Position numbers and translations under genes: made by a program. Below the pieces are notes generated by a model, which saw only the letters and a list, made by a program, of their open reading frames with translations, was not told the DNA's origin and ran no database searches. 64,000 nucleotides of DNA from contig JBBDXE010000032.1 of the NCBI GenBank assembly GCA_040902505.1, forward strand, positions 494,378 through 558,377, read 5' to 3'. Source of the stretch: Dehalococcoidia bacterium (lineage in GTDB: Bacteria; Chloroflexota; Dehalococcoidia; DSTF01; JACRBR01). This document shows, piece after piece, positions 48,968 through 62,813 of the stretch. Within the stretch, counting starts at the first letter, position 1, and every line of letters begins with the position of its first letter.

Positions 48968-51900
48968 TCATCGATGCGCGTGGCAGCGACGACCGAGTTG
49001 TCGCATCGCCAGCACCAAGTCCCCGTATCCGACTTTGCCGTTTCGGTCCACATCGTAGGTCCCGTTGCGGCTCTGCGACGCGATCGCTTTCGCGATACGC
49101 ACCACGTCGCCCAGAGTCACGCGCCCGTCGCCGGTCACATCGGCGCAGGGCTTCGGCCGCTTCCCGTGCGTGGGACTCGCGGTTGCGGTCCGTGACGGTG
49201 CAGCCGTACGCGTCGTCACCACCGTGCGCGTCGCCCCCACCGTGCGGGTCGTCATCACCGTGCGCGTCGCAACGACCGTGCGCGTCGGCGACACGGTCCG
49301 CGTGACGTGAGCCGTTGCGCCCGGTGACGCCGTGTGGATCACCGCCGGCGTGCGGGTCGAAGACGGCGTACTGGTCCCGGTCGCGACGGCCGTGCTCGTC
49401 GCAGTAGGGCTGGGCGACGCTGTCGATGTCGCCGGGGGTGGAGTCGTCGCTGTCGGCTCCGGCGTGTCCGTGGCGGTCGGCACGGGCGTGCTCGTGGCGG
49501 AAGCCATGGAAGTCGGTGTTGCCGTCGATTCAGGTGTGTGCGTTGCCGTCGGCTGCGGGGTATCGGTGGCCGTCGGCACCGGCGTGTGCGTCGATGTCGA
49601 CTCGGGCGTGTCGGTTGCCTGCGCAGTGTTGGTCGCGGTCGGCGGCGGCGTACCGGTGGAGGTCGGTCCGGCGGTATTCGTCGCCGTGGGCTCGGCGGTG
49701 TTCGTCGGCGTGGGTGTGGGCGTGCCGGTGGGCACTGAGGTGCTGGTCACCGTGGCCGCGGGCGTATCGGTGGCGGTGGCCACGGGCGTTTCGGTCGCCG
49801 TCGGCGACGCGGTGGCGGTACCGGTGGGCGAGGGCGTGGGTGTTGCAGGCGGCGCGACGCCTTCGAGTTCAAAGGCGCCGATATCGCAGGCGGCGCCCTG
49901 GGGCCGCGTCACGCCGCGCTGGTCGGCCGGCGGACAGCCGCCGTTCGTGGCCGCGTCGATCGCGGGACTTCCAGCGAGGAGCGCGTGCGTGAAGGTGTCG
50001 CCACCGTTGTCGGCGAGCGGGCCGAGCATCGGCGGCTGGCCCGTGACGTCGAGCGATGTTTCGCCGTCCATCTCGCACCCGGTCATGTCGCCGACCAGGT
50101 TGTAGCCTTCCGAGCTGAGACTCCCGAACTGGACCGCGCAGTCGGGCGCCTCGCCTCCCGTGTCGGTGTTGCCGGCCACGATGCTGTTCTTCAACTGCGT
50201 CAGGTTCGAGAACTGGAAGATGCCGCCACCGTCTCCGGTGCCGTTCGCGTCGCTGTCCGCGCTGTTGTCCGCGACCGTGACATTGATCAATCGCGCCTGG
50301 GGGAAGGCGGCACCGTGGATACCGCCGCCGTGCCGGCCGGCGTCGTTGCCGCTGACCGTACTGTTGATGATCTCGAGCGTACTGCTCGCGTGGATGCCGC
50401 CGCCGTCGGTTGTCGCGGTGTTGCCGCTGATCGTGGTGTCCACGATGGTCATGGGGCCGCCGTTGGCGACGCCGCCGCCCTGACCCGGGGAGCTGTTGCC
50501 GATGATCGTGCTGCCGGTGATGCGGGTGGTGCCGTTGCTGAACACACCACCGCCGGATCCGGCAATCGCGGGGGCCTGGTTGCCGGCGATCGTGCTGTCC
50601 TGGATGTCGAGCCTGCCAATCGCCGGGCCGACCACGCCGGTGTTCGCATTGCCCTGGACCGTCGAGCGCACGACGGCCGCCCCCACCTCGAAGCCCGACA
50701 AGGACAGCCCGGACTGCATGTTGTTCGACAGCAAGCTGTCGATGATGGAGACTGTCTCCCCGAGGAAAATGGCCGACTGCACGCCATGCTCCGTGTTGAA
50801 ACTGATCTCACTATCTCGCACGATGAGGGTGGACGCGGCCACACCCGGCCCACTGTTCGCCGTGACCAGCACGTTATCGAGTGACAACGTCGCTCCCGTC
50901 ACCTGAACCTGGATGCCACCGTTGGGCGGGGTGGTGGACGGGCTGCCCGGCGGGCGAGCGCCGTTCCTCACGGTGAGACCCGACAGCTCGAAGGGCGCAC
51001 GCATCCTGGGCGGCGGGGCTTCCACGCCGAACACGTGGGAGAGCCCGCCGCCGTCGATGATGCTGAGTTCGCGGCCGAGGCCGCGGATCAACGTCGGACC
51101 CATAATGTCGAAATCACCGACGGACTCGTCGACATTGAAGTTGAAGAACCCCTCGGTGGTCGGCCTGGTGATCGCGTAGGTGCCCTCGCCGAGCAAGATG
51201 ACGTTCGGTCCGGCGACGGAGTTCGACTCCATGACGGCGGCGCGGAGCGTGCAGGTACCGGTGGCGCCGGCGCAGACGCCGTTGAGGGCGGCGTCGGGCA
51301 GATCGGTGGTGTCGTTCACGACGAACGTCACCGGAACACCCGGCGCCGGGGGCACGGGAGGGCCGGCGTCCGCCGGCGGCACATCGTGCTCGAAGGCGCC
51401 GACGTCGCACGCCGGCCCCTGCGGCCGTGTCACGCCACGCTGGTCGGCCGCCAGGCAGCCGTTGCCGGCCGCGTCAATCGCAGGGCTGCCCGGCGGGAGG
51501 CCGTGCGTCTGCGTGGGGCCGCCGTTGTCGGCGAGCGCGAACAGTCCGGAGTTGACCCCGGTGAGATTGCCGGGCAGGAGGCCGCATCCACCGGCGTTGC
51601 CGATGAGGTTCATAGCCCCGCTGAACGCTCCGGCGCAGTCCGGCGCCTCTCCCCCGGCATCGGCGTTCTCGTCGATGAGCGTGCGCGCGATCGATGACTG
51701 GCCCACCCCTCCCGGGCCGTTAGCGACGCCACCGCCGTCACCGGTCCCGTTGCCATCGGCGTCGGCGAGGTTCGCCGCGAACGTCGAGTCGGTGATCGTG
51801 AGCGCGGCCAGGCCGGTGTAGTCGTTGAAGATGCCGCCACCGTCCATGCCGGCACGGTTCCCGCTGAAGGTGCTGTTCGTGATCGTCGCGTCGCGGTAGT

Positions 51901-54900
51901 TCGCGAGGCCGCCGCCACGCGCGCCGGCGCGGTTCCCGCTCACCGTACTGTCGGTCATCGTCAGGACTCCACGGTTGTAGATGCCGCCACCGTCGGTACT
52001 GGTGCCGTTATCGGAGATCGTGCTCCGGACGATGAGCGCCATCTTGTTGGGGACGATGTTGATCCCGTTCGCGCCGTTTCCGGACACGACGCTGTCGTAC
52101 ATTTCGAGCCCTGGCATAACGGCGCCGGGAAGGCCGAAGAGGGACACACCGTTGCCACCGTTGTTTTCGATCCGGCTGTCCCGGACGATGAGCAGACCAC
52201 TGTTCAGGACTCCCGCGTTGCCCGCGAGGTCCGTAGGCACGGCTCCGTTGCCGGTGACGACCACGTCTTCGAGCGTGAGGGGAGACTGGGCGGCCACCCC
52301 CTGTGAACCGGCGTTTCGCAGGGTCATCCCGCGTACCAGGGCGCCGCTGAGGAAGCTGAGGATCCGCCGGAACCCGCCGCCATCGACGATCGTCTGGTCC
52401 GGGCCGTCTCCCACGATCGTCCAGGTCTTGTTGCCAGAGAAATCCAGGTCGCCCTGGGCCGGCAAGAACTCGTTATTGAACGGGTCATCCGGCCCGAGCG
52501 TCAGGACGTAGGCGTTGGCGTTGGCGGGGACTACGATCGTCACCGCCGTGCCCGCCGGCTTTTGATTGGCCTCCATGACGGCGGCGCGCAGCGTGCATTC
52601 GCCCAGGCTGTCGGCGCACACTCCGTTCCCCGGAGTCGCATCGACGCGGTCGGCGGTGCTGTTCACCACGAAAGTATTTCCGCTCGGTGTCGGCGTTGGC
52701 GTCGGCGTGTTGGTGATGGTCGGCGTGTTCGTCACCGTGGCGGTGTCAGCCAGCACCGTATCGGTCGGCGATGGTGTCGCGCTGGAGGTGGGCGTCGGAG
52801 TCGCGGCGCAGCCGGGGTCAGCGCCGTCCGTCAGGCCATCACCGTCGTTGTCGAGACCGTCGGAGCAGCTCCCGGCTACGGATGCGCCCTCGGGAGTGCT
52901 TTCGGCATCGAGCGGGTCGGAGCCCAGCGCGTCCTCTGCGTCATCGTCGAATCCGTCGCCGTCGGCGTCAGGGCAGACGTCGACGATGACGGAGGTGGCG
53001 CGCTCGAAGTGCTCGGTGTTGCTCGACCCGATGGCGGTGAACGACACGATCCATGGCCCGCAGTCCAGGAAGGTCATCTGCGCGGCGAAGACGCCGTCGG
53101 CGGCGCTCTCGTCGGGACTGGCGCCGTCGTCGAGCAGGTCGACGGCCATCGGGGCGGCTCCGGATGTGACGGCGCCAACGGAGACGGTTGCGTCGAGCCC
53201 GGGCACAACGCTGAGGTCGGCGGTGAGCTGGACAGTCTGGCCGGCGTCGACGGTGTTGGGCGAGGCGTCGGCGCTGAGTACGATGGCGCTCTCCATCGCA
53301 GTGAGCAGCATGAACTCCCCGGGTTCGGGGAGGGGCGAGACGGGCGTCACCTCGAGCGTCCAGTAGCCAGCCGCGGGCGCCTGGATGGCCCAGACGTCCG
53401 CTAGTTGACCTTCCATGTACGGTGATGCAGCGTCGTGCGAGACACCGGCGTCGGCGTCGAGGACCAGACTGTTGTCAGGCCGGCGGACGCTGATCTGGAA
53501 GTCGGGCGCGAGGTCGCCGTCTTCCCAGATCAGCGATAAGACGACGGAGGTCGCGGACGCTTCGACGTACACCTGATGTACGTCGGTGGTGGACTGTGTC
53601 GCGTTGACGTACAGGTCGGCAACCCCGGACTCGTCGCCCACGGCGGCGATGGACACCGCGTCGTTCACGGCGTCGCCGGTCGCACCCTGGGCGGACAGCG
53701 AGCCGATCGACCCTGCGGAGACCCCGGCCTCGACGGGGATCTCCAGGAACTGGTTGATCTGGCAGAAGGTATGGACGAAGTCCGCCTGGCAGTTCGTGAG
53801 GGGCGGGTCGTCGGCGACACCGGGGACGGCGAAGCACTTGGCCTTGTGTGAGACTTCCTGATACACGAGCGTCGTGGCGGGCGGGAAGGGCCCCGCGGCG
53901 CTGGCGCTGGACACGAGGCAGTCATCGGGACCGGGGATGATGAGCGTCATGCCGCTCCCCGGAAGGCTGGCGCCCAGAGAGACCTCGCCGGCGAGCACGT
54001 GATACTCCGTGTCCGATGCGGTCCAACCCGGGTTGATCTGAGGGTAGATGGGCGACACTAGGCTCATGTCGCGCGCGCCGAGGTCGTCCTGCCAGTCGCC
54101 GTCGAGGAGGTCCACGAGGCACGCCACGGACAGCAGGGGGATGGGCCCGCCGAACGCGCAGGCGCCGAGATCGCCGATCATGGCGAAGTCGGACGCGATC
54201 GTCCCCAGGTTCGGCGTGCCGAGCATGATCAGTTGATCGACGTACTGGCTGCCGCCGCGCTTCTCAATGTAGTAGCGCGAGTTCACGCCGCCGTAGCTGT
54301 GCGCGATGATGTCGATCTTGTCGTCGGGGACCGGGCTCACGCGCTCCAGGAACCCGCCAGTGGCCTCGACGTACGCTTCCATCTGTGCACTGATGGCGAG
54401 CGTGCCCAGCTTCCAGTCGTAGCCGCGGTCGTTGGCGCCGGGTGAGGGGTTGCCTCCCGGGGGATCGAAGCATTCGACGCGCTCAGCCACCTCGGCCTCC
54501 GCGCCGGGGAAGACCGCGAAGTCGACGAGGTGCTGCTCGAGCCAGGGCTCGACGGCGTACATCCCCTGCTGGCAGCTGCTCCCGTAGCCGTGTACCAGGA
54601 GGACGGCGGGGACGCGCTGGATGGTAAAGGGGAGAGTGACGCTTCGCCCGCTCAACTCCTGGACCTCGACCTGCCACTCCCCGGCGAAGGCGGCGCCGAG
54701 CGACGGGACGGGATCGACGTCGTCCGACGTCCAGTTCGTGCCGTCGATGGGAAGTGAGACGAGACCGTCGAACACGCAGGGACAGCCGCCAGGAAAGGTG
54801 TCGATCTCCTCGAACTCCTCCGGGTTGCCGGCATAGTCACAGTTGCGCAGCGCGGTCGGCACGTCGTTCTCGAGCAGCACGGCGATGGTGCATGCTGGCA

Positions 54901-56566
54901 GCTCGACCGTGTTGCCGTCGTCGGGATAGTTGGGGCGGGTAAATGTGATCCTGAACACATCGTTCAACTCGGCCTGAAACGACATCACGACGATGGCGGC
55001 GTCGTCGGTAGAGATGAACTGGCCGGTAGGAGCCGCGATTGGGCATGGTGCGGAGCCGATCTCCGGGCAGCGGCTGAAGCGGACTTCGAGGAGGCCGACG
55101 TCCGGCGTGACGACGTCTACCGGCGCGTTGACGCCAACGAACTCCGGCGTGGTCAGACCGTTCCCGAGCTGCCCGAAGTGGTTGTAGCCCCAGCACTTGG
55201 CGGACCCGTTGAGCAAGATGGCGCAGTTGTGCGTGCCGCCGCCGGCGATGCTCTCGACGCCTGACCCCAATCCGACGACCGGTTGGGGTGTGGTCTCGCG
55301 CGCTCCGATCTCGCCGTTCCCCACAGCGCCCAGGTTGTTGAGCCCCCAGCACCAAACGCCATCCAGTCCGTCCAGAGCGCAAGAGCTGTCGGACGTCGTG
55401 ATCTGCCGAATCGTCTCGTCGAGGAACTCATCGACGAACTCCGGCGAAGGCACGGCGTACGGGTCCGACGGCTGGTGAGGATCGCCGGGATCGGCGGGCC
55501 AGCATTGCGGGTCGACGAGTTCACTCCCGTTGCAGCCAACCTGGCCGTGTGCGTTGTAGCCCCAGCAGTAGGCGTCGTTGATGAGGTCGACGACGCAGGT
55601 TTCCGCGCCGCCGACGGCGAGCTCCAGCGCCGGGAAGGGAAGAATCACGTTGACAGGCAGCGCACGACAGCCGATCGACGTTCCGCTCGTGCACTCGGCG
55701 GTTGTCGGTACCTCGTCGGGGCTGTCGCCGATCCCGAGCTGGCCGTTGTAGTTCATGCCCCAGCACTTCACCGCGCCGTCGAACATGAGCGCGCAGGTAT
55801 GCAGCCCGCCCGCCTCGACTTCCAGGACGCCGGACAGGCGCTGGCCGCCGGTACAGTCGAAGCCTGTGCCCGTCTCACACACCGGAGTAGGTCCGAGCCA
55901 GGCGTTGCCGCTCGTATTGTTGCCCACCTGTCCGTAGTTGTTCAGGCCCCAGCACCAGACTTCGCTCTCCGTGGTGACAGCGCAGGTGTGGTCGTGGCCG
56001 GCGGATACCTGCGCGACGAATAGCGTGTCACTGACGAGAAGCGGGAGCGGGTTGGCCGCGGCCGGCCCGAACTCTCCGTTCCCCAGCTGTCCCCACAGGT
56101 TGTCGCCCCAGCAGCGGACGCGGCTCGCCGCGACGGCGCAGGTGTGCGCCCCGCCCGCCGACACCTGCTGCGTGCCCCCCAACCCGAGCGCCACCACGTT
56201 CTGCGGCAAGGCGCTGTTCAGAAAATCGCCTGTACCAAGCTGCCCGGAGCTGTTCAGCCCCCAGCACCTCAGTCCATCCGCGGTGGTGATGCCGCAGGTG
56301 TGGTTCACGCCGACATCGATCTCCGCCCACCCGGGCGGCTCGTCCGCGCGCGTCGGCCCTGCGTCGACGAGCAACCCGGCGCCTACGAGCACGGCGATCA
56401 AGCCAATCAGCGCCAGAAGGAGTGCCTGTCGGAAACCGGGCACACCTCGCCTCGGGATGGCAGCGCTCAGAAGCGGCCGGCTGCGCGCAGAAGCTTCGCG
56501 GCTTATGACTCGCGCGAGCATACCCGGGAGGGTAGATGCGGCAGAGTGTGCGCGTGCCGACGGCAT
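48968..56566 (-). CDS. Giant secreted mosaic protein: RCC1 repeats, alpha/beta hydrolase, two CSLREA/beta-helix modules, Pro/Thr linker, dockerin-like end
   Basis: HTC..CWG.N..GQLG repeats; VHGY/AHSYGG/GTPNLG; CTLRAAV.E; [30 protein letters not shown]; DVTGDG/DVDRNG; start codon uncertain. Confidence 0.85.
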
Positions 56567-56839
56567 TGCGTAGCCCAGCTTCTGCGGCGGGATGAGAGTC
56601 CTTCGACGGTCAATTGCGACGGGGGCAGCGTCAGAATAGACTCTTGACCGGTATCTGCCAAGGCAGCGAAACCCGGCCTCCCTGCTTGACACGCGGGCCG
56701 AAGACGAAGACCGTCATCATCCGTGCTGGGTGACTACGGCGATACGTGGGAGCGGTGGCAGGAGCGGAGAGCCGCGCGGGCCATGCGCATAGCGCCCTCT
56801 CCGGAAACAGCGCGACCGCCACTGATGCAGGGTGTCAAG

Positions 56840-56887: not shown

Positions 56888-58139
56888 GACGATTGGGTTG
56901 GTCCCACTGAACCCTTTCAAGATCCATAGCGTCCCGTTTCGTATCTGGGTGTTTGGGCTATACCATAGTGGCACGATCATTGGGGCAGCAAAATGGCAGT
57001 AACATCGGCGGTCTATTTCCGCCCGCAGCGGTCCTTCTAACCGCAGGTCGCAGACGACCGAGACGATTGGGACTGTAAGAGTAGCTCGGCGGCACGCCGG
57101 GCGGTCAGATTAGTGCTGCGAGCACATCCGGAGTTGTTCGTGAACGCGGAGCTGCTGCGCGACCTCGGCTTCCAGCTGGAGGGCCGTGCACCCGGGGGCG
57201 AGTCCGGCGGCGCGTGGTTCGCCATCTCTGCCGATGGTGAGCGCGTCGTGCTGAAGTGGTTCGCCGGCGAGGGCGTGGCCGACCGCTATGCGGCGCTCCT
57301 GCCCGCGCTCGACGTGTTGCGTTCGCGTGGCGTGCCCGTGCCCGAGTACCCGTTCGTGCGCGCCGTCGACGGGTGGACGCTCTCCGCACAGCAGGTGCTG
57401 CCGGGACGATCGTTCCCGATCTGGCCGCCGCAGCTGGTCGACCGGATGATCGAGTGCGTCAGCGCTGCAGCCGGCATCGTCGGCCCACCGCCGGCACCAG
57501 CGCTGCAGGGGTGGGGTGAGTTCGTGATTCACACCCTCACGGTCGGCGAGGACGGCTGCGCGCAGCACGACTCGCTCCGGGCGCACTCCGATCGCGCCCG
57601 GCGCATCATCGACTTCGTCGAGTCGGTCGGCGCCGACGCCGAGCCGTCATGGTTCCCGACGAGCGGGCTCGTCCACCTCGACCTGCACACCGACAACGTG
57701 CTCGCCCTCGATGACGGCACGCTCACCGGGATCATCGACTGGGAGGGTGCGTGCGCGGGCGATCACCGCTACGACCTGGTGGCGTTCGCGTTCGACCTCG
57801 ACGGTCACGGCCAGCAGATCTGGGACCGGGTCGAGACGCTCGTCGAGCCGCACGTGCTGCGGGCGTACGTCGCGCACATGGCGCTCCGTCGCACGGACTG
57901 GGCGATCCGCCACCGCCCCGAGGATGTCCCCCGGCAGCTGGACCGCGCCGAGCGCATGCTCGACCGGTAAATCCGCAGCACACCTTCGCTCGCTAGTTGA
58001 GCCAGCAAGGCGTGCTGCGCGGTCGACGGACGGCCCGGACGCACCAACACACGGCGGCAACCGATGGCACGCGAGCGTACGAAAAGCCAAACAGTGGCAC
58101 GGGTGGAGGGACTCGAACCCCCGACCGGCGGTTTTGGAG
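56881..58139. mobile_element. ~1.25-kb integrase-less islet/remnant at tRNA-Trp
   Basis: Bounded by the tRNA 3'-half duplication; carries one phosphotransferase gene. Confidence 0.65.
57113..57970 (+). CDS. Aminoglycoside phosphotransferase (APH)/choline kinase family protein
   Basis: VVLKW, LVHLDLHTDN, IIDWE, YDL; start uncertain. Confidence 0.85.
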   Translation: MLRAHPELFVNAELLRDLGFQLEGRAPGGESGGAWFAISADGERVVLKWFAGEGVADRYAALLPALDVLRSRGVPVPEYPFVRAVDGWTLSAQQVLPGRSFPIWPPQLVDRMIECVSAAAGIVGPPPAPALQGWGEFVIHTLTVGEDGCAQHDSLRAHSDRARRIIDFVESVGADAEPSWFPTSGLVHLDLHTDNVLALDDGTLTGIIDWEGACAGDHRYDLVAFAFDLDGHGQQIWDRVETLVEPHVLRAYVAHMALRRTDWAIRHRPEDVPRQLDRAERMLDR

Positions 58140-58170
58140 ACCGCTGCTCTTCCAACTGAGCTACACCCGT
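58095..58170 (-). tRNA. trnW: tRNA-Trp (CCA)
   Basis: 76 nt; acceptor stem ACGGGTG/CACCCGT, anticodon arm GCGGT-CTCCAAA-ACCGC, GTTCGAGTC T-loop, encoded CCA end. Confidence 0.97.
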
Positions 58171-58318
58171 GCGCGAAGCTACCGTGAATCTAGCGAAACC
58201 TTGAGATCTGGCGCCCGATCTGCCATACTTCTACCACATTTCTACCACGGACGGATTCCGCCTGACTCACGCGGTTAGGATAGCAGAGACGGGAAGTCTC
58301 CTACGAACAGGAGACGAC

Positions 58319-59512
58319 ATGGCGACGGCTTGGGAGACGGTCGAAGCTCACATCTACCGCAAGCCCGGCAACACGAACAGCCTTCAAGTGACCGCCGGTA
58401 GACCGCGCAAGTGGCGCGCCGTGCGACGTAGCGTCACGGTCGAACGATCCCCGCACGAAGCACCGCACAACGAGACCGCGAAACAGCACCTAACACGCGC
58501 CCGCCTGGAACGCGCACGCCTTGAGACGGAGATCGCAGAGGGACGCGGCGCGACGAAGGGCAAGATCACAGTTCGGACGCTTGTAGCACGCTACTTCGCC
58601 GAGTATATCGCCGAGGACTCAGACGAGCCGCGATTAGGCGCGCGTACGATCACGTCCTACAGGCAGCTACTTGATAACCACGTACTGCCGGAGATCGGCA
58701 CGAAGCGACTTCGCGATCTGGAACCGCTCGACGTTGACGGCGTGTATAGCAAGATGGAAGCGAAGGGACTTTCGGGTACGACGCGGCTACACGCGCACGT
58801 CTCGCTATCGGGCGTGTTGAAGTGGGGCGTACGGAAGGGACTTGTTGATCGCAACGTCGCGGCGTTCGCGGATATCCCGAAGAGTTCAACGAAGCGGCAA
58901 CGCACGTCTACGGCGGACGAGGTAGCAAGGATCCTCGCAGCGACGAAGGCAGAGATTGATCCCGCCGTGGCACCGATGATCGCGTTGACGGCGCATACGG
59001 GGATGAGACTCGGCGAAGTCCTGGGGCTTAGATGGCAGGATGTTGACTTCGAGCAACACCGCCTACACGTCATACAGACGTACGGCAGCGATCGGAAGTT
59101 CCGCAAGCCCAAGAACGAAAGCTCGGCTCGGACAGTCGATCTTGCGCCCGATATTATCGCCATGCTGCGCGAACACAAGCGCGAACAACAAGCGCACTAC
59201 ATTGAGCATGGACTACGCCCCGATCTCGATATCGTGTTCGCACTCGCTGACGGTTCCGCGCGTGATCAGGACAGAGTAGCGAAGGTGTGGAAGCGCATCC
59301 GTACTCGCGCCGGGGTTCCCGGCTTTCGCTTCCACGACTTGCGCCATGCTACCGCCTCTCTACTGCGGTCGAAGGGCGTAGACTTCGGCGTAATCGCTCA
59401 CCGCTTGGGCCACGCATCCGAGAACACGACGCGGGAGATTTACCGGCACGTTCTCCCCGAGGAAGCGTCAGAAGCGGCGGCGATAATGTCACGCGCGCTC
59501 GGCGCGCAATGA
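58319..59512 (+). CDS. int: Tyrosine recombinase/integrase
   Basis: TGMRLGE (R), PKN (K), FHDLRH (HxxR), LGH, IYRH (Y); N-terminal SAM-like domain. Confidence 0.95.
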   Translation: MATAWETVEAHIYRKPGNTNSLQVTAGRPRKWRAVRRSVTVERSPHEAPHNETAKQHLTRARLERARLETEIAEGRGATKGKITVRTLVARYFAEYIAEDSDEPRLGARTITSYRQLLDNHVLPEIGTKRLRDLEPLDVDGVYSKMEAKGLSGTTRLHAHVSLSGVLKWGVRKGLVDRNVAAFADIPKSSTKRQRTSTADEVARILAATKAEIDPAVAPMIALTAHTGMRLGEVLGLRWQDVDFEQHRLHVIQTYGSDRKFRKPKNESSARTVDLAPDIIAMLREHKREQQAHYIEHGLRPDLDIVFALADGSARDQDRVAKVWKRIRTRAGVPGFRFHDLRHATASLLRSKGVDFGVIAHRLGHASENTTREIYRHVLPEEASEAAAIMSRALGAQ

Positions 59513-59733
59513 GCGAGCCCGAAGAGCGTCCGGTACTCACCGTGCAAGAGACGGCGGAGCTTCTAGGGATTGAGCGCCACTTCGTATATAGGCTGATCGC
59601 GTCTGGCGTCATACCGTGTGTGAAGCTCAGCCCGAGCGTATGGCGCGTCCCGCGCGCGATGCTGCTACAGAGGCTTGAAGAGATCGCCTCGAACGCGCCC
59701 GAGACGGACACAGAAAGCCCCTCGCTGCGATAG
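59509..59733 (+). CDS. xis: Excisionase-like HTH_17 protein
   Basis: LTVQETAELLGI....VYRLIASG.IP.VKL....RVPR; ATGA overlap with int. Confidence 0.85.
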   Translation: MSEPEERPVLTVQETAELLGIERHFVYRLIASGVIPCVKLSPSVWRVPRAMLLQRLEEIASNAPETDTESPSLR

Positions 59734-59775
59734 CGAAGGGCGTTCCTGTTCAGCCGTGGGAAGTGTACCGGCGGA

Positions 59776-60063
59776 CTATATGCGGCGCGGCTTGCCGCGC
59801 TCTGCCGACGGATCCGCCGTCGCGTGTTCGCTCTCGAAGATGAGCCAGGCGCCGCGCGTGTAACCCTCTATCGTTCGCGTATCGGGCGGCGGCGGGCCGC
59901 TCGCCTCACTCCAACCCTCGGCGCCTTTCGTGTTGATCATGTGATCGGCGATCACGGTCTTTAGGGTGAACCCATCATCGGCGATCTTGTTGAGTTCCGC
60001 CGTGATCTTCTCGCAGCCGTTGTCGTTGCGCGGCAGTTCGACAAAGCGCATTAGGTATTGCAT
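59776..60063 (-). CDS. Small hypothetical protein (DUF4177-like)
   Basis: MQY...ELNKIADDGFTLKTV...LIFE pattern. Confidence 0.5.
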   Translation of the reverse strand: MQYLMRFVELPRNDNGCEKITAELNKIADDGFTLKTVIADHMINTKGAEGWSEASGPPPPDTRTIEGYTRGAWLIFESEHATADPSAERGKPRRI

Positions 60064-60079
60064 TGGATCAGTCTCCCAT

Positions 60080-60295
60080 CTACGGCTTGCCGCGTACCGG
60101 CGACTCACGCATGAACTCGATCAGCTCCGCCCATGTGCGCTGTCCGCCGTCACGCTTCTTAGGAGACCGCCATACGAGGGTGCCCTTGCTAACGTGTAGC
60201 GTCCCTTTGAGCTTGTCGCCGATCCAGACCTTAAACTCTACGTCGGCCCGCTCTAGCTCTCGCTCCGGAGGCTTAAACAAAATCCGATTCGCCAT
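60080..60295 (-). CDS. Small hypothetical protein
   Basis: 71 aa, globular composition, AGGA before ATG, co-directional with the downstream ORF. Confidence 0.6.
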   Translation of the reverse strand: MANRILFKPPERELERADVEFKVWIGDKLKGTLHVSKGTLVWRSPKKRDGGQRTWAELIEFMRESPVRGKP

Positions 60296-60433
60296 GTCCT
60301 GATCCTTCCGGTACGGGCTTAGACGCTGGCCTTGAGAGAGGATCGCCCCCTACGGCCTCGAATCCATATCGGGGAGACCCCTAAAGGGTAGTCACGTCCC
60401 GTGCCGACAATCTAGAGAGTAGGAGCGTGGCAC

Positions 60434-61168
60434 ATGGTTATCCCGATCCGAGCCGGGTGGCGCGATAAGGTCGAGGCGCAACCTGAATGGCGTGGCGCCT
60501 TAGAGTGCGAGTGGGATTGCAGTCAGGGCGGCAAGCTCGATGGCATGTGGACATATCACGTTGGGTATAAGGCCAAACGGCAGGTCACGCTCTACGGTCT
60601 ACCAGTCGCCCCGCTCGGGGATTCATCGGTGGGCTACATCGCCTGTGAACGATGTCGGCAAGGCCGCTGGTACAAGCGCGATGCCTATCAACAGGCGAGC
60701 AGGGATGCGGCCACAAACCTCGCAATTCTCAATCAGGGCGACAACAAGCGCGGTGGTACTCCGTTCCGCCAACTGTTCGACAACAACGCGAACGAGCGGG
60801 CGGAATGGAAGGGCATCATGGAGTGTCCGAAGTGCGCCCCTCAACGTGACAAGCTGACGCTGTTCGTTGGGTTCCGAGTTCCCGTGACCATCAACGAACC
60901 GTCACGCCCCGAACCTCACCTTACCGGCTGCATCATGTGCTTGCGATGCGAGTTTGGCGCGTGGTTATCCGATGCTGAGTTCGCCGAGTGGGGCGGCATT
61001 GCGTCGAACAATCGCCGGAAGGTAGACCCCGACGGCTTGGCGAATGACAAAAGCTGTTGGCAGAAGAACGCAGCGGAGACAAAGCGTAGGTTGTGCCCTG
61101 AGTGTGGGCGGGACACGACGCAGTTTGACCACACGCCAGAGTGTGACTACGGCGTTCTGTTGGCCTAA
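60434..61168 (+). CDS. Hypothetical protein with tandem zinc-ribbon-like repeats
   Basis: AGGAG RBS; two W.G..EC..C...VG...VT...G.I.C.RC..G.W units plus C-terminal CPEC...H..EC. Confidence 0.7.
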   Translation: MVIPIRAGWRDKVEAQPEWRGALECEWDCSQGGKLDGMWTYHVGYKAKRQVTLYGLPVAPLGDSSVGYIACERCRQGRWYKRDAYQQASRDAATNLAILNQGDNKRGGTPFRQLFDNNANERAEWKGIMECPKCAPQRDKLTLFVGFRVPVTINEPSRPEPHLTGCIMCLRCEFGAWLSDAEFAEWGGIASNNRRKVDPDGLANDKSCWQKNAAETKRRLCPECGRDTTQFDHTPECDYGVLLA

Positions 61169-61264
61169 GCCCGGCGAATCGATTTCGCGATCCGCAACCG
61201 CGAAAATTGACAGTGGTTTTCGCTCACCTTTGACAGCATTGGTCGCGTACAGGTAGGTTGAACC

Positions 61265-61550
61265 ACAACCGAATAGCAAGTGCTTCTGACCCTCGCAAAG
61301 AGGGGCCTTCGCGCCGACGATGGCGGGCCATATAGATCATACGTGATCTGTTTGGTGCCGCCTTTTCGTTTGCCCGAAACGGAGCGCGGCGACTCGGTTG
61401 AGGGGACGTTGTGCGTTCGGCGTCTCCGTTCAACTTGCAGACGCGGCATACCGATGCCCGGCGCGATACCGCTCGAAAGAGCCGTCCCTCCGCCCGGCGT
61501 CGGAGTCGCGTCACGGTAAGAGGAAGCGCGCGACGTGAACGCCGTCGCTG
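61265..61550 (+). ncRNA. Candidate structured ncRNA or long structured 5' leader
   Basis: Follows TTGACA(61230)-N18-TAGGTT(61254); about 9 nested helices with UACG and GAAA tetraloops; folded by eye only. Confidence 0.55.
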
Positions 61551-61592
61551 CGATCGAGCGCGTGTAACGAACAGCGAATGAAAGGCGAACCG

Positions 61593-61760
61593 ATGATTAC
61601 GGCATCGGAAAGACTCACGCTCCTGGGGCGCGTGAGCGATCTCCGAGGGAACTACGAAACGCTCAACAAGGCCGGGCGCGCGAAGGAAGCGCAAGCGGTT
61701 ATGAAAGAGATCGAGTCCGTTCTGGACAAGCTCGAAATCGCACAGGGCGAGACCCGGTAA
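61593..61760 (+). CDS. Small helical hypothetical protein (55 aa)
   Basis: GAAAGG RBS before ATG 61593; amphipathic helices. Confidence 0.6.
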   Translation: MITASERLTLLGRVSDLRGNYETLNKAGRAKEAQAVMKEIESVLDKLEIAQGETR

Positions 61761-61987
61761 AATCTGCGGGAGACGCGAGGTATTTTCTCGTTGAGGTAGG
61801 CGCGTCTCGAAGGGCCGCTAGGCCCGCAGAGACGGTACGCACGATCCCTCCGCGCTCCCGCATATACCGGTTATCTACCAAACGGGACGATCCAGGCCGC
61901 AACACGAGCCCGCCATCTGTCCCGCCTCAGATACGAAACGAGCCCCAACGGGCTTGATTATGTCTGCCTGAGACCCTCGCGAGCGCA

Positions 61988-62029
61988 TTTGGAGACCGCT
62001 GCTCTTCCAACTGAGCTACACCCGTGCGC
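61988..62029 (-). repeat. Displaced 5' half of tRNA-Trp (att site)
   Basis: tRNA nt 1-38 plus 4 upstream nt, identical to 58133-58174. Confidence 0.93.
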
Positions 62030-62035
62030 TTGCCC

Positions 62036-62064
62036 AGTATACGAAACACCGGACGGCTGGCGAA
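62036..62064 (-). promoter_or_regulatory. Probable native tRNA-Trp promoter, now upstream of the truncated 5' half
   Basis: Minus strand TTCGCC-N17-TATACT, 10 nt before tRNA +1. Confidence 0.55.
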
Positions 62065-62066
62065 AC

Positions 62067-62813
62067 TCAGCGGGCGGCCGATCGCCCGTGCGCGTCTACA
62101 ACGCGGCGCACTACGTCCGGAAAGTCGCTGCAGATGCTGTCGGCGCCTGCCGCTGCCATGCGGGCCATGTCCGCTTCATCGTCGACCGTCCACACCATGA
62201 ACGTCAGCGAGCGCAGCTGGCCCTGCCGCACCCGCTCCGGCGTCGCGCTCGCATAGTGGACGCTGACGCCCTGCGCGCCCAGTGAGAGCGCGAACGAGAA
62301 GAACTCATCCCAGTCGACGATGCTCCGGCCGTCGGTCAGCAGAGCCGCCGCCATCCGCGGCTCGACCTTCCGCATGCGCTCGACGTTCTGCGGCCAGAAC
62401 GAGTGCGTCTCACAGCTGGGGATGGCGTCCGCGTCGCGCACCACGGCCGCGATCTGCTCTTCGATCTCCGCCTGCTTGATCTCGATCTGCAGGAGCACCC
62501 GATCCTTCGTTAGCGCCAGCACCTCCGCCAGCGTCGGGATGCGTTCCCCCTGGAACTGCGGGACGAATTGCCGCGCGCCGGCATCAAGCGCCCGCACCAC
62601 GTCGAGCGTCATGCCGTGGACATCTCCGGAGCCGTCGGTCGTGCGGTCGACAGTCTTGTCATGCAGCAGGATCGGCACGCCGTCCGACGTGCAGTGGACG
62701 TCGATCTCGATCGCGTCTGCGCCGAGCGCGATCGCTCGCTGGATACCCGCCAGCGTATTCTCGGGCGCGTGCCCCTTGCACGCCGCGTGCGACGTCACCA
62801 GCGGACGTCTCAT
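62067..62813 (-). CDS. Glycerophosphodiester phosphodiesterase family protein
   Basis: PENTLA, IEIDVH..SDG...LHD.TVDRTT, IPTLAE, IEIK, WTVD. Confidence 0.9.
   Translation of the reverse strand: MRRPLVTSHAACKGHAPENTLAGIQRAIALGADAIEIDVHCTSDGVPILLHDKTVDRTTDGSGDVHGMTLDVVRALDAGARQFVPQFQGERIPTLAEVLALTKDRVLLQIEIKQAEIEEQIAAVVRDADAIPSCETHSFWPQNVERMRKVEPRMAAALLTDGRSIVDWDEFFSFALSLGAQGVSVHYASATPERVRQGQLRSLTFMVWTVDDEADMARMAAAGADSICSDFPDVVRRVVDAHGRSAAR

Follow-up and report, generated by a model that had tools for sequence, protein, structure and literature searches.

A probably non-coding stretch of a small integrative element in a Dehalococcoidia genome is predicted to fold, as plus-strand RNA, far more stably than chance would allow, and its structure takes in the Shine-Dalgarno (SD) sequence of the 55-codon open reading frame (ORF) that follows it. 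We tentatively regard the stretch as a structured 5′ leader of ~325 nucleotides (nt) that gates translation of this ORF, an interpretation to which we give somewhat less than an even chance. The element, 3.86 kb in size, lies in a 64-kb window (the whole stretch of DNA analyzed, whose positions serve as coordinates throughout) of a 3.03-Mb, 93%-complete assembly. The initial annotation had placed a highly structured RNA inside a mini-element, and since the structured stretch sits in the element's 425-nt gap, between a gene for a Cys-rich protein of 244 amino acids (aa) and the 55-codon ORF, that context was right. Among the three readings then offered (a non-coding RNA [ncRNA], an attenuating leader, and an RNA-plus-small-protein module), the leader fits best because the structure continues past 61529 to 61587 and takes in the SD; for the toxin-antitoxin or anti-phage identity suggested for a module, the neighboring genes yielded no PADLOC, Pfam, or NCBIfam match.

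To express folding significance, energies were converted into z-scores against dinucleotide shuffles. As RNA, the plus strand of 61270-61540 folded at −132.8 kcal/mol versus −108.8 ± 4.8 kcal/mol for the shuffles (z = −5.04), none of the 200 shuffles being as stable, which supports the plus-strand RNA structure proposed in the initial annotation. The minus strand of the same stretch gave a z of only −0.57, with 52 of 200 shuffles as stable, and with DNA parameters neither strand was significant (z = −1.04 and −1.75). For the longer segment 61267-61612, the plus strand reached −165.8 kcal/mol (z = −5.26; 0 of 100 shuffles) and the minus strand a z of −1.20. When 58200-62199 was scanned in 250-nt windows (26 positions on 2 strands, giving 52 values that are noisy at 20 shuffles per window), two outliers were obtained, 61200-61449 (z = −8.2) and 61350-61599 (z = −6.2), both on the plus strand, and the remaining 50 values spanned −3.15 to +2.47. 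Random 271-nt windows of the same genome (n = 76) had a mean z of −0.2 with a standard deviation of 1.15 and a minimum of −3.42. Together, the shuffle, strand, DNA-parameter, sliding-scan, and random-window comparisons indicated that the stability is well above chance and specific to the RNA of the plus strand.

Two folds accounted for this stability (Table 1). Fold A, the best fold of 61278-61531 (−130.6 kcal/mol), consists of the closing helix P1 (8 base pairs [bp]; GTGCTTCT/GGAAGCGC), hairpin P2, a P3/P4 domain, a hairpin at 61399-61432, and an 87-nt hairpin at 61434-61520; 74% of its bases are paired, in 94 pairs comprising 58 G-C, 23 A-U, and 13 G-U. The two longest hairpins are capped by UNCG-type (UACG) and GNRA-type (GAAA) loops. 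Fold B, the minimum-free-energy structure of both 61267-61612 and 61267-61660, retains P2 and P3 but loses P1, P4, and the hairpin at 61399-61432. In their place, 61359-61432 pairs with 61521-61587, and this arm duplex and the hairpin at 61434-61520 together make a single rod. The arm duplex amounts to −69.4 kcal/mol versus −49.3 ± 4.5 kcal/mol when one arm was shuffled (z = −4.4; 0 of 300), and the excess stability passes 61529 and goes on to 61587/61599, as the second outlier of the scan shows. In the transcript that reaches the ORF, enforcing P1 and hence fold A gave −156.0 versus −165.8 kcal/mol, a cost of 9.8 kcal/mol. Starting from fold B, the predicted price of opening is low. Re-forming the base of P3 (GGCGG:CCGCC), for whose 5′ strand a small hairpin (61305-61324) competes, reclaims the anti-SD strand for 2.2 kcal/mol, and 6.2 kcal/mol suffices to keep the SD and AUG unpaired.

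These computed structures bear unequally on the helices of the initial annotation. All of its motifs lie at the positions given there, and its 5′ hairpins, P2 and P3, are robust (probabilities of 0.89 to 1.0 for most pairs). The closing helix P1 stands in the 254-nt context cut at 61531, where its pair probability is 0.82 to 1.0 and that of most other helices exceeds 0.9, but it has this probability only there; in transcripts that reach the ORF it belongs to the fold that is ~10 kcal/mol worse. The pairing scheme of the 3′ half fared poorly: with all noted helices enforced, 61278-61531 reached −109.5 kcal/mol at best, ~21 kcal/mol worse than the unconstrained fold, which leaves GCGACTC/GAGTCGC, GAGGGGACG/CGTCCCTC, GCGTCT/AGACGC, and GGCAT/ATGCC as a possible but poor alternative.

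An RNA can be told from a decaying DNA inverted repeat by its mismatches, as in the latter those of the G.T type should be as common as those of the A.C type on any one strand. We therefore aligned the arms with G.U-type and A.C-type positions scored alike. The rod held 14 G.U-type versus 6 A.C-type positions and P3 held 2 versus 0, i.e., 16 versus 6 in sum (one-sided binomial probability of ~0.026 by our own arithmetic), besides 75 Watson-Crick columns of 121 in the rod (~62%) and 15 in P3. The G.U bias and the non-significant DNA folds favor selection on the plus strand at the RNA level, with modest support, and agree with the initial annotation, in which G-U pairs had been taken to favor a plus-strand RNA.

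The feature on which the leader interpretation turns is the base of the rod, where CGCCUUUU (61359-61366) pairs with AAAGGCG (61581-61587) and thereby spans the SD. In the computed ensemble of 61267-61660, the mean unpaired probability was 0.01 over 61579-61586 (the SD region) and 0.13 for the AUG, which is mostly paired because it lies inside the CCGAUG/CAUCGG hairpin, just where the initial annotation had put it. The ORF itself looks like a coding one, as its G+C contents at the three codon positions (0.62/0.39/0.73) resemble those of the five other genes of the element (0.43 to 0.51 at the second position and 0.70 to 0.76 at the third). Its 55-aa product would be hydrophilic, with 18 of 55 residues charged and no hydrophobic stretch.

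Based on these structures, translation would be OFF in the default state, and opening of the rod base would switch the gene on. In the order of transcription, P2, P3, and then the P1-closed fold A would form first, the last because its 3′ strand precedes 61530-61587. Once that segment emerges, the more stable rod would displace P1, P4, and the hairpin at 61399-61432, and the SD would be buried. Since both the P3 base and the base of the rod draw on one anti-SD strand (CCGCCUUUU), P3 is predicted to compete with the rod, which may constitute a simple two-state switch. Candidate triggers include the kinetics of co-transcriptional folding, an RNase specific for double strands (e.g., RNase III) that cuts the rod, and a bound factor, for which the zinc-ribbon-rich 244-aa protein encoded by the preceding gene is a candidate. 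P3 and the UUUUCGUUU that follows it may also halt part of the transcripts early, adding an attenuation step. Whereas the folds, their energies, and the pairing of the SD and AUG are computed, we infer that the stretch is transcribed, where its RNA begins, which way the switch works, and what triggers it.

Several points weigh against a leader of this kind. No homologue was found that could lend covariation support to any base pair, and no RNA run was listed as containing the stretch, which is uninformative either way. With a weak promoter, the 5′ end is an assumed one, and the RNA could instead be an intergenic segment within an operon that includes the 244-aa gene. In an RNA of 62% G+C with 74% of its bases paired, a purine-rich SD can be expected to pair to some extent anyway. 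The 55-aa protein is without relatives, and therefore even the gene lacks conservation support. An efficient terminator at P3 would end most transcripts near 61370, before the rod, and 250 nt is large for simple SD masking.

Searches for relatives were made at several levels, and by sequence the RNA is a singleton in all collections searched. A blastn-type search that covered the genome itself, those of 60 relatives, and 400 from the phylum returned only chance matches of 27 to 63 nt, in 9 of the 400 phylum genomes, and distant blastn of phage and plasmid collections yielded no homologue of the RNA. Two single-sequence covariance models were then used, R1 for the 3′ half and R2 for the 5′ half. 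Within the family (35 other genomes), R1 gave two matches (E of ~0.03), one of them inside a 408-aa ORF, and R2 gave four (E of 0.05 to 0.085), with alignments that share little sequence; in 150 genomes of the phylum, R1 gave none and R2 gave two at an E of ~0.005 to 0.006 per genome, which is the chance expectation. Metagenome and viral contigs contained no exact match to 20-mers taken from P3 and the apex of the rod. For the product of the 55-codon ORF (60 codons from the upstream ATG), no relative was found, nor any match of at least 0.9 in the ESM Atlas. A full-text literature search listed general RNA-motif discovery papers only.

The 244-aa protein is nearly as isolated. Two relatives (72% and 33% identity) were present among 5.8 billion proteins, both in Logan assemblies, and none was found in genome, viral, or metagenome contigs or, by tblastn, in phages and plasmids. 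When 92 further genomes from the order were searched with a profile, relatives of its N-terminal zinc-ribbon-like domain only were detected, in unrelated contexts; among them are single-domain proteins starting with MI(I/A)(F/W)GW... in G015 and G478. The protein itself shows an apparent internal duplication of a strand-rich CxxC unit plus a helix (~residues 19-104 and 125-192) followed by a C-terminal CxxC...C, a reading that rests on a low-confidence AlphaFold model (predicted local distance difference test [pLDDT] of 49.7), a DNA repeat, and the alignment with its relatives.

That the stretch over the RNA is probably non-coding follows from the ORFs that cross it, which have a flat G+C content over codon positions, e.g., 0.66/0.59/0.65 for a 79-aa plus-strand ORF across the RNA core. 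A 156-aa minus-strand ORF over the RNA had no homologue in the 5.8-billion-protein collection, and neither ORF matched Pfam. The single match of the 79-aa ORF among 1.84 billion representatives, a 535-aa tandem-repeat protein, is regarded as spurious, as a weak match of 29 residues repeated 8 times inflates the E-value. With Rfam 15 at gathering thresholds, the whole window yielded only the tRNA at 58098-58170, and at an E of ≤10, 61000-62100 yielded only mir-1013 noise (16.9 bits versus a gathering score of 60), in line with the initial annotation, which had not recognized the RNA as tmRNA, RNase P, SRP, or 6S RNA or as a common riboswitch. PADLOC gave no defense-system match for the cargo of the element. 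A repeat of the miniature inverted-repeat transposable element or repetitive extragenic palindromic type is excluded by the single copy in the assembly, where other matches are ≤30 nt.

Among known systems, the closest likeness is to leaders that sequester the SD, such as the fourU and ROSE thermometers and the long-range-folded inert mRNAs of the type I toxins hok and tisB. With the thermometers the RNA shares a U-run (CCUUUU) on the SD and a start codon in a hairpin, but this U-run is held within a rod whose arm duplex (~−69 kcal/mol) is far too stable for a thermometer, and a thermometer is therefore excluded. The hok and tisB mRNAs have in common with it a long-range closure over >200 nt, a tiny gene (55 codons) on a mobile element, and folds that form in the order of transcription; unlike those membrane toxins, the charged product described above has no hydrophobic membrane character and no family match, and neither an antisense RNA nor another promoter was identified. 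None of the four has a sequence or Rfam relation to the RNA. The phage intercistronic hairpins processed by RNase III, such as the T7 early mRNA sites and the lambda N leader and sib, are likewise long irregular hairpins between mobile-element genes, placed so that cleavage frees or destroys a ribosome-binding site, but those sites are ~60 nt long and the predicted rod is much longer at ~229 nt.

Retron msr-msd RNAs resemble the predicted fold A in closing inverted repeats (the 8-bp P1) and in short 5′ hairpins followed by a long one (the 87-nt hairpin), although fold B is the more stable in longer transcripts, and their locus is likewise mobile. In contrast to retrons, the element proteins have no reverse transcriptase domain, and RVT_1 has no match in the 93%-complete genome whereas 3 of 14 control genomes match; a retron is thus excluded. 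The raiA, HEARO/omega, and IS110 bridge RNAs are also structured RNAs of a few hundred nucleotides in the non-coding part of a mobile element, beside an unknown gene. They differ in that the RNA described here has no Rfam match, is single copy, and is neighbored by no TnpB, IscB, or IS110-type domain or gene; with complementarity to the att cores at chance, a guide RNA is excluded. By analogy, then, the predicted RNA is one that would work like the SD-masking leaders but belongs to none of the systems compared.

The main rival to the leader, which we consider unlikely, is a free-standing structured ncRNA of ~250 nt in fold A, acting in trans or in a complex, e.g., with the Cys-rich 244-aa protein. 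It would account for the high pair probabilities of P1 and most other helices in the 254-nt context, for the significance of 61270-61540 taken alone, and for the UACG and GAAA loops; fold A forms first in transcription, and the adjacent 244-aa gene, with two homologues, and the RNA, with none, are both rare. However, neither the sequence nor the scan provides a terminator after 61529, fold A is ~10 kcal/mol worse than the rod when 61530-61612 is present, and the excess stability reaches 61599. Targets in trans were sought as well. Duplex energies with the attL and attR cores (both strands of each) gave z of −0.93 to +0.45, and with the translation-start regions of the other five genes of the element included, the range was −0.93 to +1.15, by which an antisense role against the element's own genes or att sites is excluded; the best complementary stretch elsewhere in the genome was 26 nt at 92% (E of 0.014), not above chance. 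The quality of the AlphaFold model for the 244-aa protein is too low to hint at RNA binding. A bolder proposal, which we hold to be less probable than this rival, is that the RNA is the founding member of a new class of large structured RNAs carried as cargo by minimal tRNA-integrating elements, either as a factor- or ligand-sensing switch or as the RNA component of a complex whose protein would be the adjacent orphan multi-zinc-ribbon 244-aa one; switching between the P1-closed fold and the 229-nt rod would then control the 55-aa protein.

Slightly less probable than that proposal is a structure without function, i.e., a fold that arose by chance or is a relic, for example of an inverted duplication now decayed, in a spacer rich in G+C within a degenerate element. 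The RNA is indeed a singleton without conservation in any collection searched, single-sequence z-scores are prone to known false positives, and six A.C-type mismatches were seen. Such an origin fits poorly with z-scores of ~−5 to −8 when the worst values were −3.42 among 76 random windows and −3.15 among 50 element values, with a signal that is specific to one strand and to RNA, and with an SD and an AUG that fall precisely in paired segments.

We give less credence still to a short regulatory RNA or attenuator that starts at ~61267 and ends at P3 and its U-tract (~61370), an RNA of ~100 nt that consists of P2 plus a terminator, with the downstream structure incidental or reached only by read-through. 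Its start, like that of the leader, would be set by the TTGACA-N18-TAGGTT promoter of the initial annotation. That sequence is present, but its −10 hexamer agrees with TATAAT at 3 of 6 positions and a consensus sigma-70 scan called no plus-strand promoter in 59700-62100, and we retain it as a possible weak promoter; the same scan called no minus-strand promoter within 61170-61990. Two TTGACAG heptamers lie 23 nt apart at 61207-61236, a short way upstream of the RNA, and the loop of a GCGAAAA/UUUUCGC hairpin (61200-61223) contains the first of them. They could represent an operator or tandem −35 boxes; over the window, such heptamers are about as frequent as chance predicts (4 versus 3.15 expected). 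At the other end, P3 resembles an intrinsic terminator, with a G+C-rich base, GGCGG/CCGCC, directly followed by UUUUCGUUU; TTTT is rare, with 14 occurrences on the plus strand of the window. The pairs of P3 are themselves predicted with high probability, and the hairpin at 61305-61324 rivals a strand of the P3 base in fold B. Nevertheless, the terminator scan did not call P3, whose bulged stem exceeds the simple model of the scan, and no usable or timely upstream antiterminator was found, the only strong partner for opening the P3 base lying 200 nt downstream, too late for co-transcriptional antitermination. A short RNA would also leave 61350-61599 and the long-range duplex unexplained.

A DNA-level site, in which a long imperfect palindrome serves as a transfer origin, single-strand origin, packaging site, or protein-binding site, is the least probable of all: the region is probably non-coding, cis sites such as transfer origins are often rich in inverted repeats, and an element of only 3.86 kb with no recognizable replication or transfer genes would therefore borrow them and carry just the cis site, but neither strand beats its shuffles as DNA, the ~62% Watson-Crick arms favor G.U over A.C by 16 to 6, as expected of RNA and not of duplex DNA, and no relaxase, Rep, or terminase is encoded nearby, although for an origin helpers might act in trans.

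The element that carries the RNA is bracketed by a 47-nt direct repeat whose copies are 96% identical, with tRNA-Trp as the integration site (Table 1). The insert has a G+C content of ~57 to 64% (58175-61982) versus ~69 to 72% in the flanking chromosome, and the closest integrases in the order of the host share 39% (G021) and 38% (G053) identity with its own, with no sister element among them. The G+C contrast and the integrase identity of ≤39% suggest that the element is a recent arrival from a different lineage. The only run that contains it is a DNA run, possibly that of its source: a 3,873-nt Logan contig covers 58145-62017, exactly between the att repeats, and the adjacent contigs of the same run end within the repeats, with word depths of 18.6 for the element, 24.4 for its left flank, and 16.9 for its right flank. 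The contigs of this run showed no excision or circle joint.

Table 1. Features of the element and of the predicted RNA. Paired motifs are listed with the start position of each strand.
Feature	Position	Strand	Remarks
attL	58128-58174		47-nt direct repeat within tRNA-Trp (58095-58170, minus strand)
Tyrosine integrase, 397 aa	58319-59512	+	Pfam Phage_integrase, 4.2e-26; PHROG integrase
Excisionase-type HTH_17 protein	59521-59733	+	Pfam HTH_17, 1.1e-12; TIGR01764 excise, 9.5e-10
Two small ORFs	59776-60108, 60080-60295	−	No solid family
Cys-rich 244-aa protein	60434-61168	+	Directly upstream of RNA; no family
Gap between 244-aa ORF and 55-codon ORF			425 nt; contains the structured RNA
TTGACA-N18-TAGGTT	61231-61260	+	Possible weak promoter, putative; from sequence
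Structured non-coding leader RNA (candidate)	61267-61592	+	5′ end assumed from putative promoter
Fold A	61280-61529	+	Closing helix P1 (61280-87/61522-29) around multi-branch core
P2 hairpin, CCCUC-GCAAA-GAGGG	61290-61304	+	Pair probability 0.99-1.0; present in every fold
P3 long hairpin	61322-61371	+	UACG loop, then UUUUCGUUU; most pairs 0.89-1.0
Fold B	61359-61587	+	Unbranched irregular ~229-nt rod; GAAA apex 61475-61478
Anti-SD, CCUUUU	61361-61366	+	Pairs with 61581-61585; best-partner probability 0.5-0.97
GAAA-capped hairpin	61471-61482	+	Pair probabilities mostly 0.9-1.0
SD, AAAGG	61581-61585	+	7 nt ahead of AUG 61593
CCGAUG/CAUCGG hairpin	61590-61608	+	6 bp; contains start codon; pair probability 0.84-0.86
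55-codon ORF	61593-61760	+	60 codons from ATG 61578; hydrophilic; last gene of element
Terminator-like hairpin	61939-61956	+	Immediately ahead of attR
attR	61983-62029		Other copy of the 47-nt repeat
GTGCTTCT / GGAAGCGC	61280 / 61522		Motif
CCCTC / GAGGG	61290 / 61300		Motif
GGCGG / CCGCC	61322 / 61358		Motif
AGATCA / TGATCT	61334 / 61344		Motif
TTCGTTT / AAACGGA	61365 / 61377		Motif
GCGACTC / GAGTCGC	61389 / 61503		Motif
GAGGGGACG / CGTCCCTC	61400 / 61483		Motif
GCGTCT / AGACGC	61420 / 61439		Motif
GGCAT / ATGCC	61445 / 61454		Motif
GCTC / GAGC	61471 / 61479		Motif
CCGATG / CATCGG	61590 / 61603		Motif

Several further features of the element were noted. The two small minus-strand ORFs (71 and 110 aa) overlap by 29 nt and read towards a terminator-like hairpin at 59741-59717; apart from a weak DUF4177 match under the cut-off (E of 0.001), they matched no family, and they might encode a regulator or a pair resembling toxin and antitoxin. 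A direct repeat of 27 nt with 85% identity occurs at 58701-58727 in the integrase coding region and at 61175-61201 in the spacer after the 244-aa gene, which may be chance. The spacer between the small ORF and attR (61760-61985) has moderate plus-strand structure as well (z = −2.82; 1 of 200 shuffles), and it probably also houses integrase arm sites. Just left of the element, a 2,574-aa minus-strand ORF (48968-56692) shows, by eye, RCC1-like repeats, many repeats of the parallel beta-helix type, Thr/Pro-rich linkers, and a dockerin-like end.

Taken together, what is new here is a so far unique sequence, as cis-acting structured leaders are already known as a type. Its wider importance is limited for now, since the RNA is a singleton predicted from sequence and the protein that it would regulate matches no known family. 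The approach may be of use elsewhere, for strand asymmetry and the counts of G.U versus A.C positions in the arms can separate RNA from DNA palindromes when homologues are lacking. If the leader interpretation is true, a compact, self-contained control of a tiny gene by RNA structure, built on two well-defined competing folds, would be carried by an integrase element that ranks among the smallest (3.86 kb) and resides in an uncultured lineage that has been little studied.

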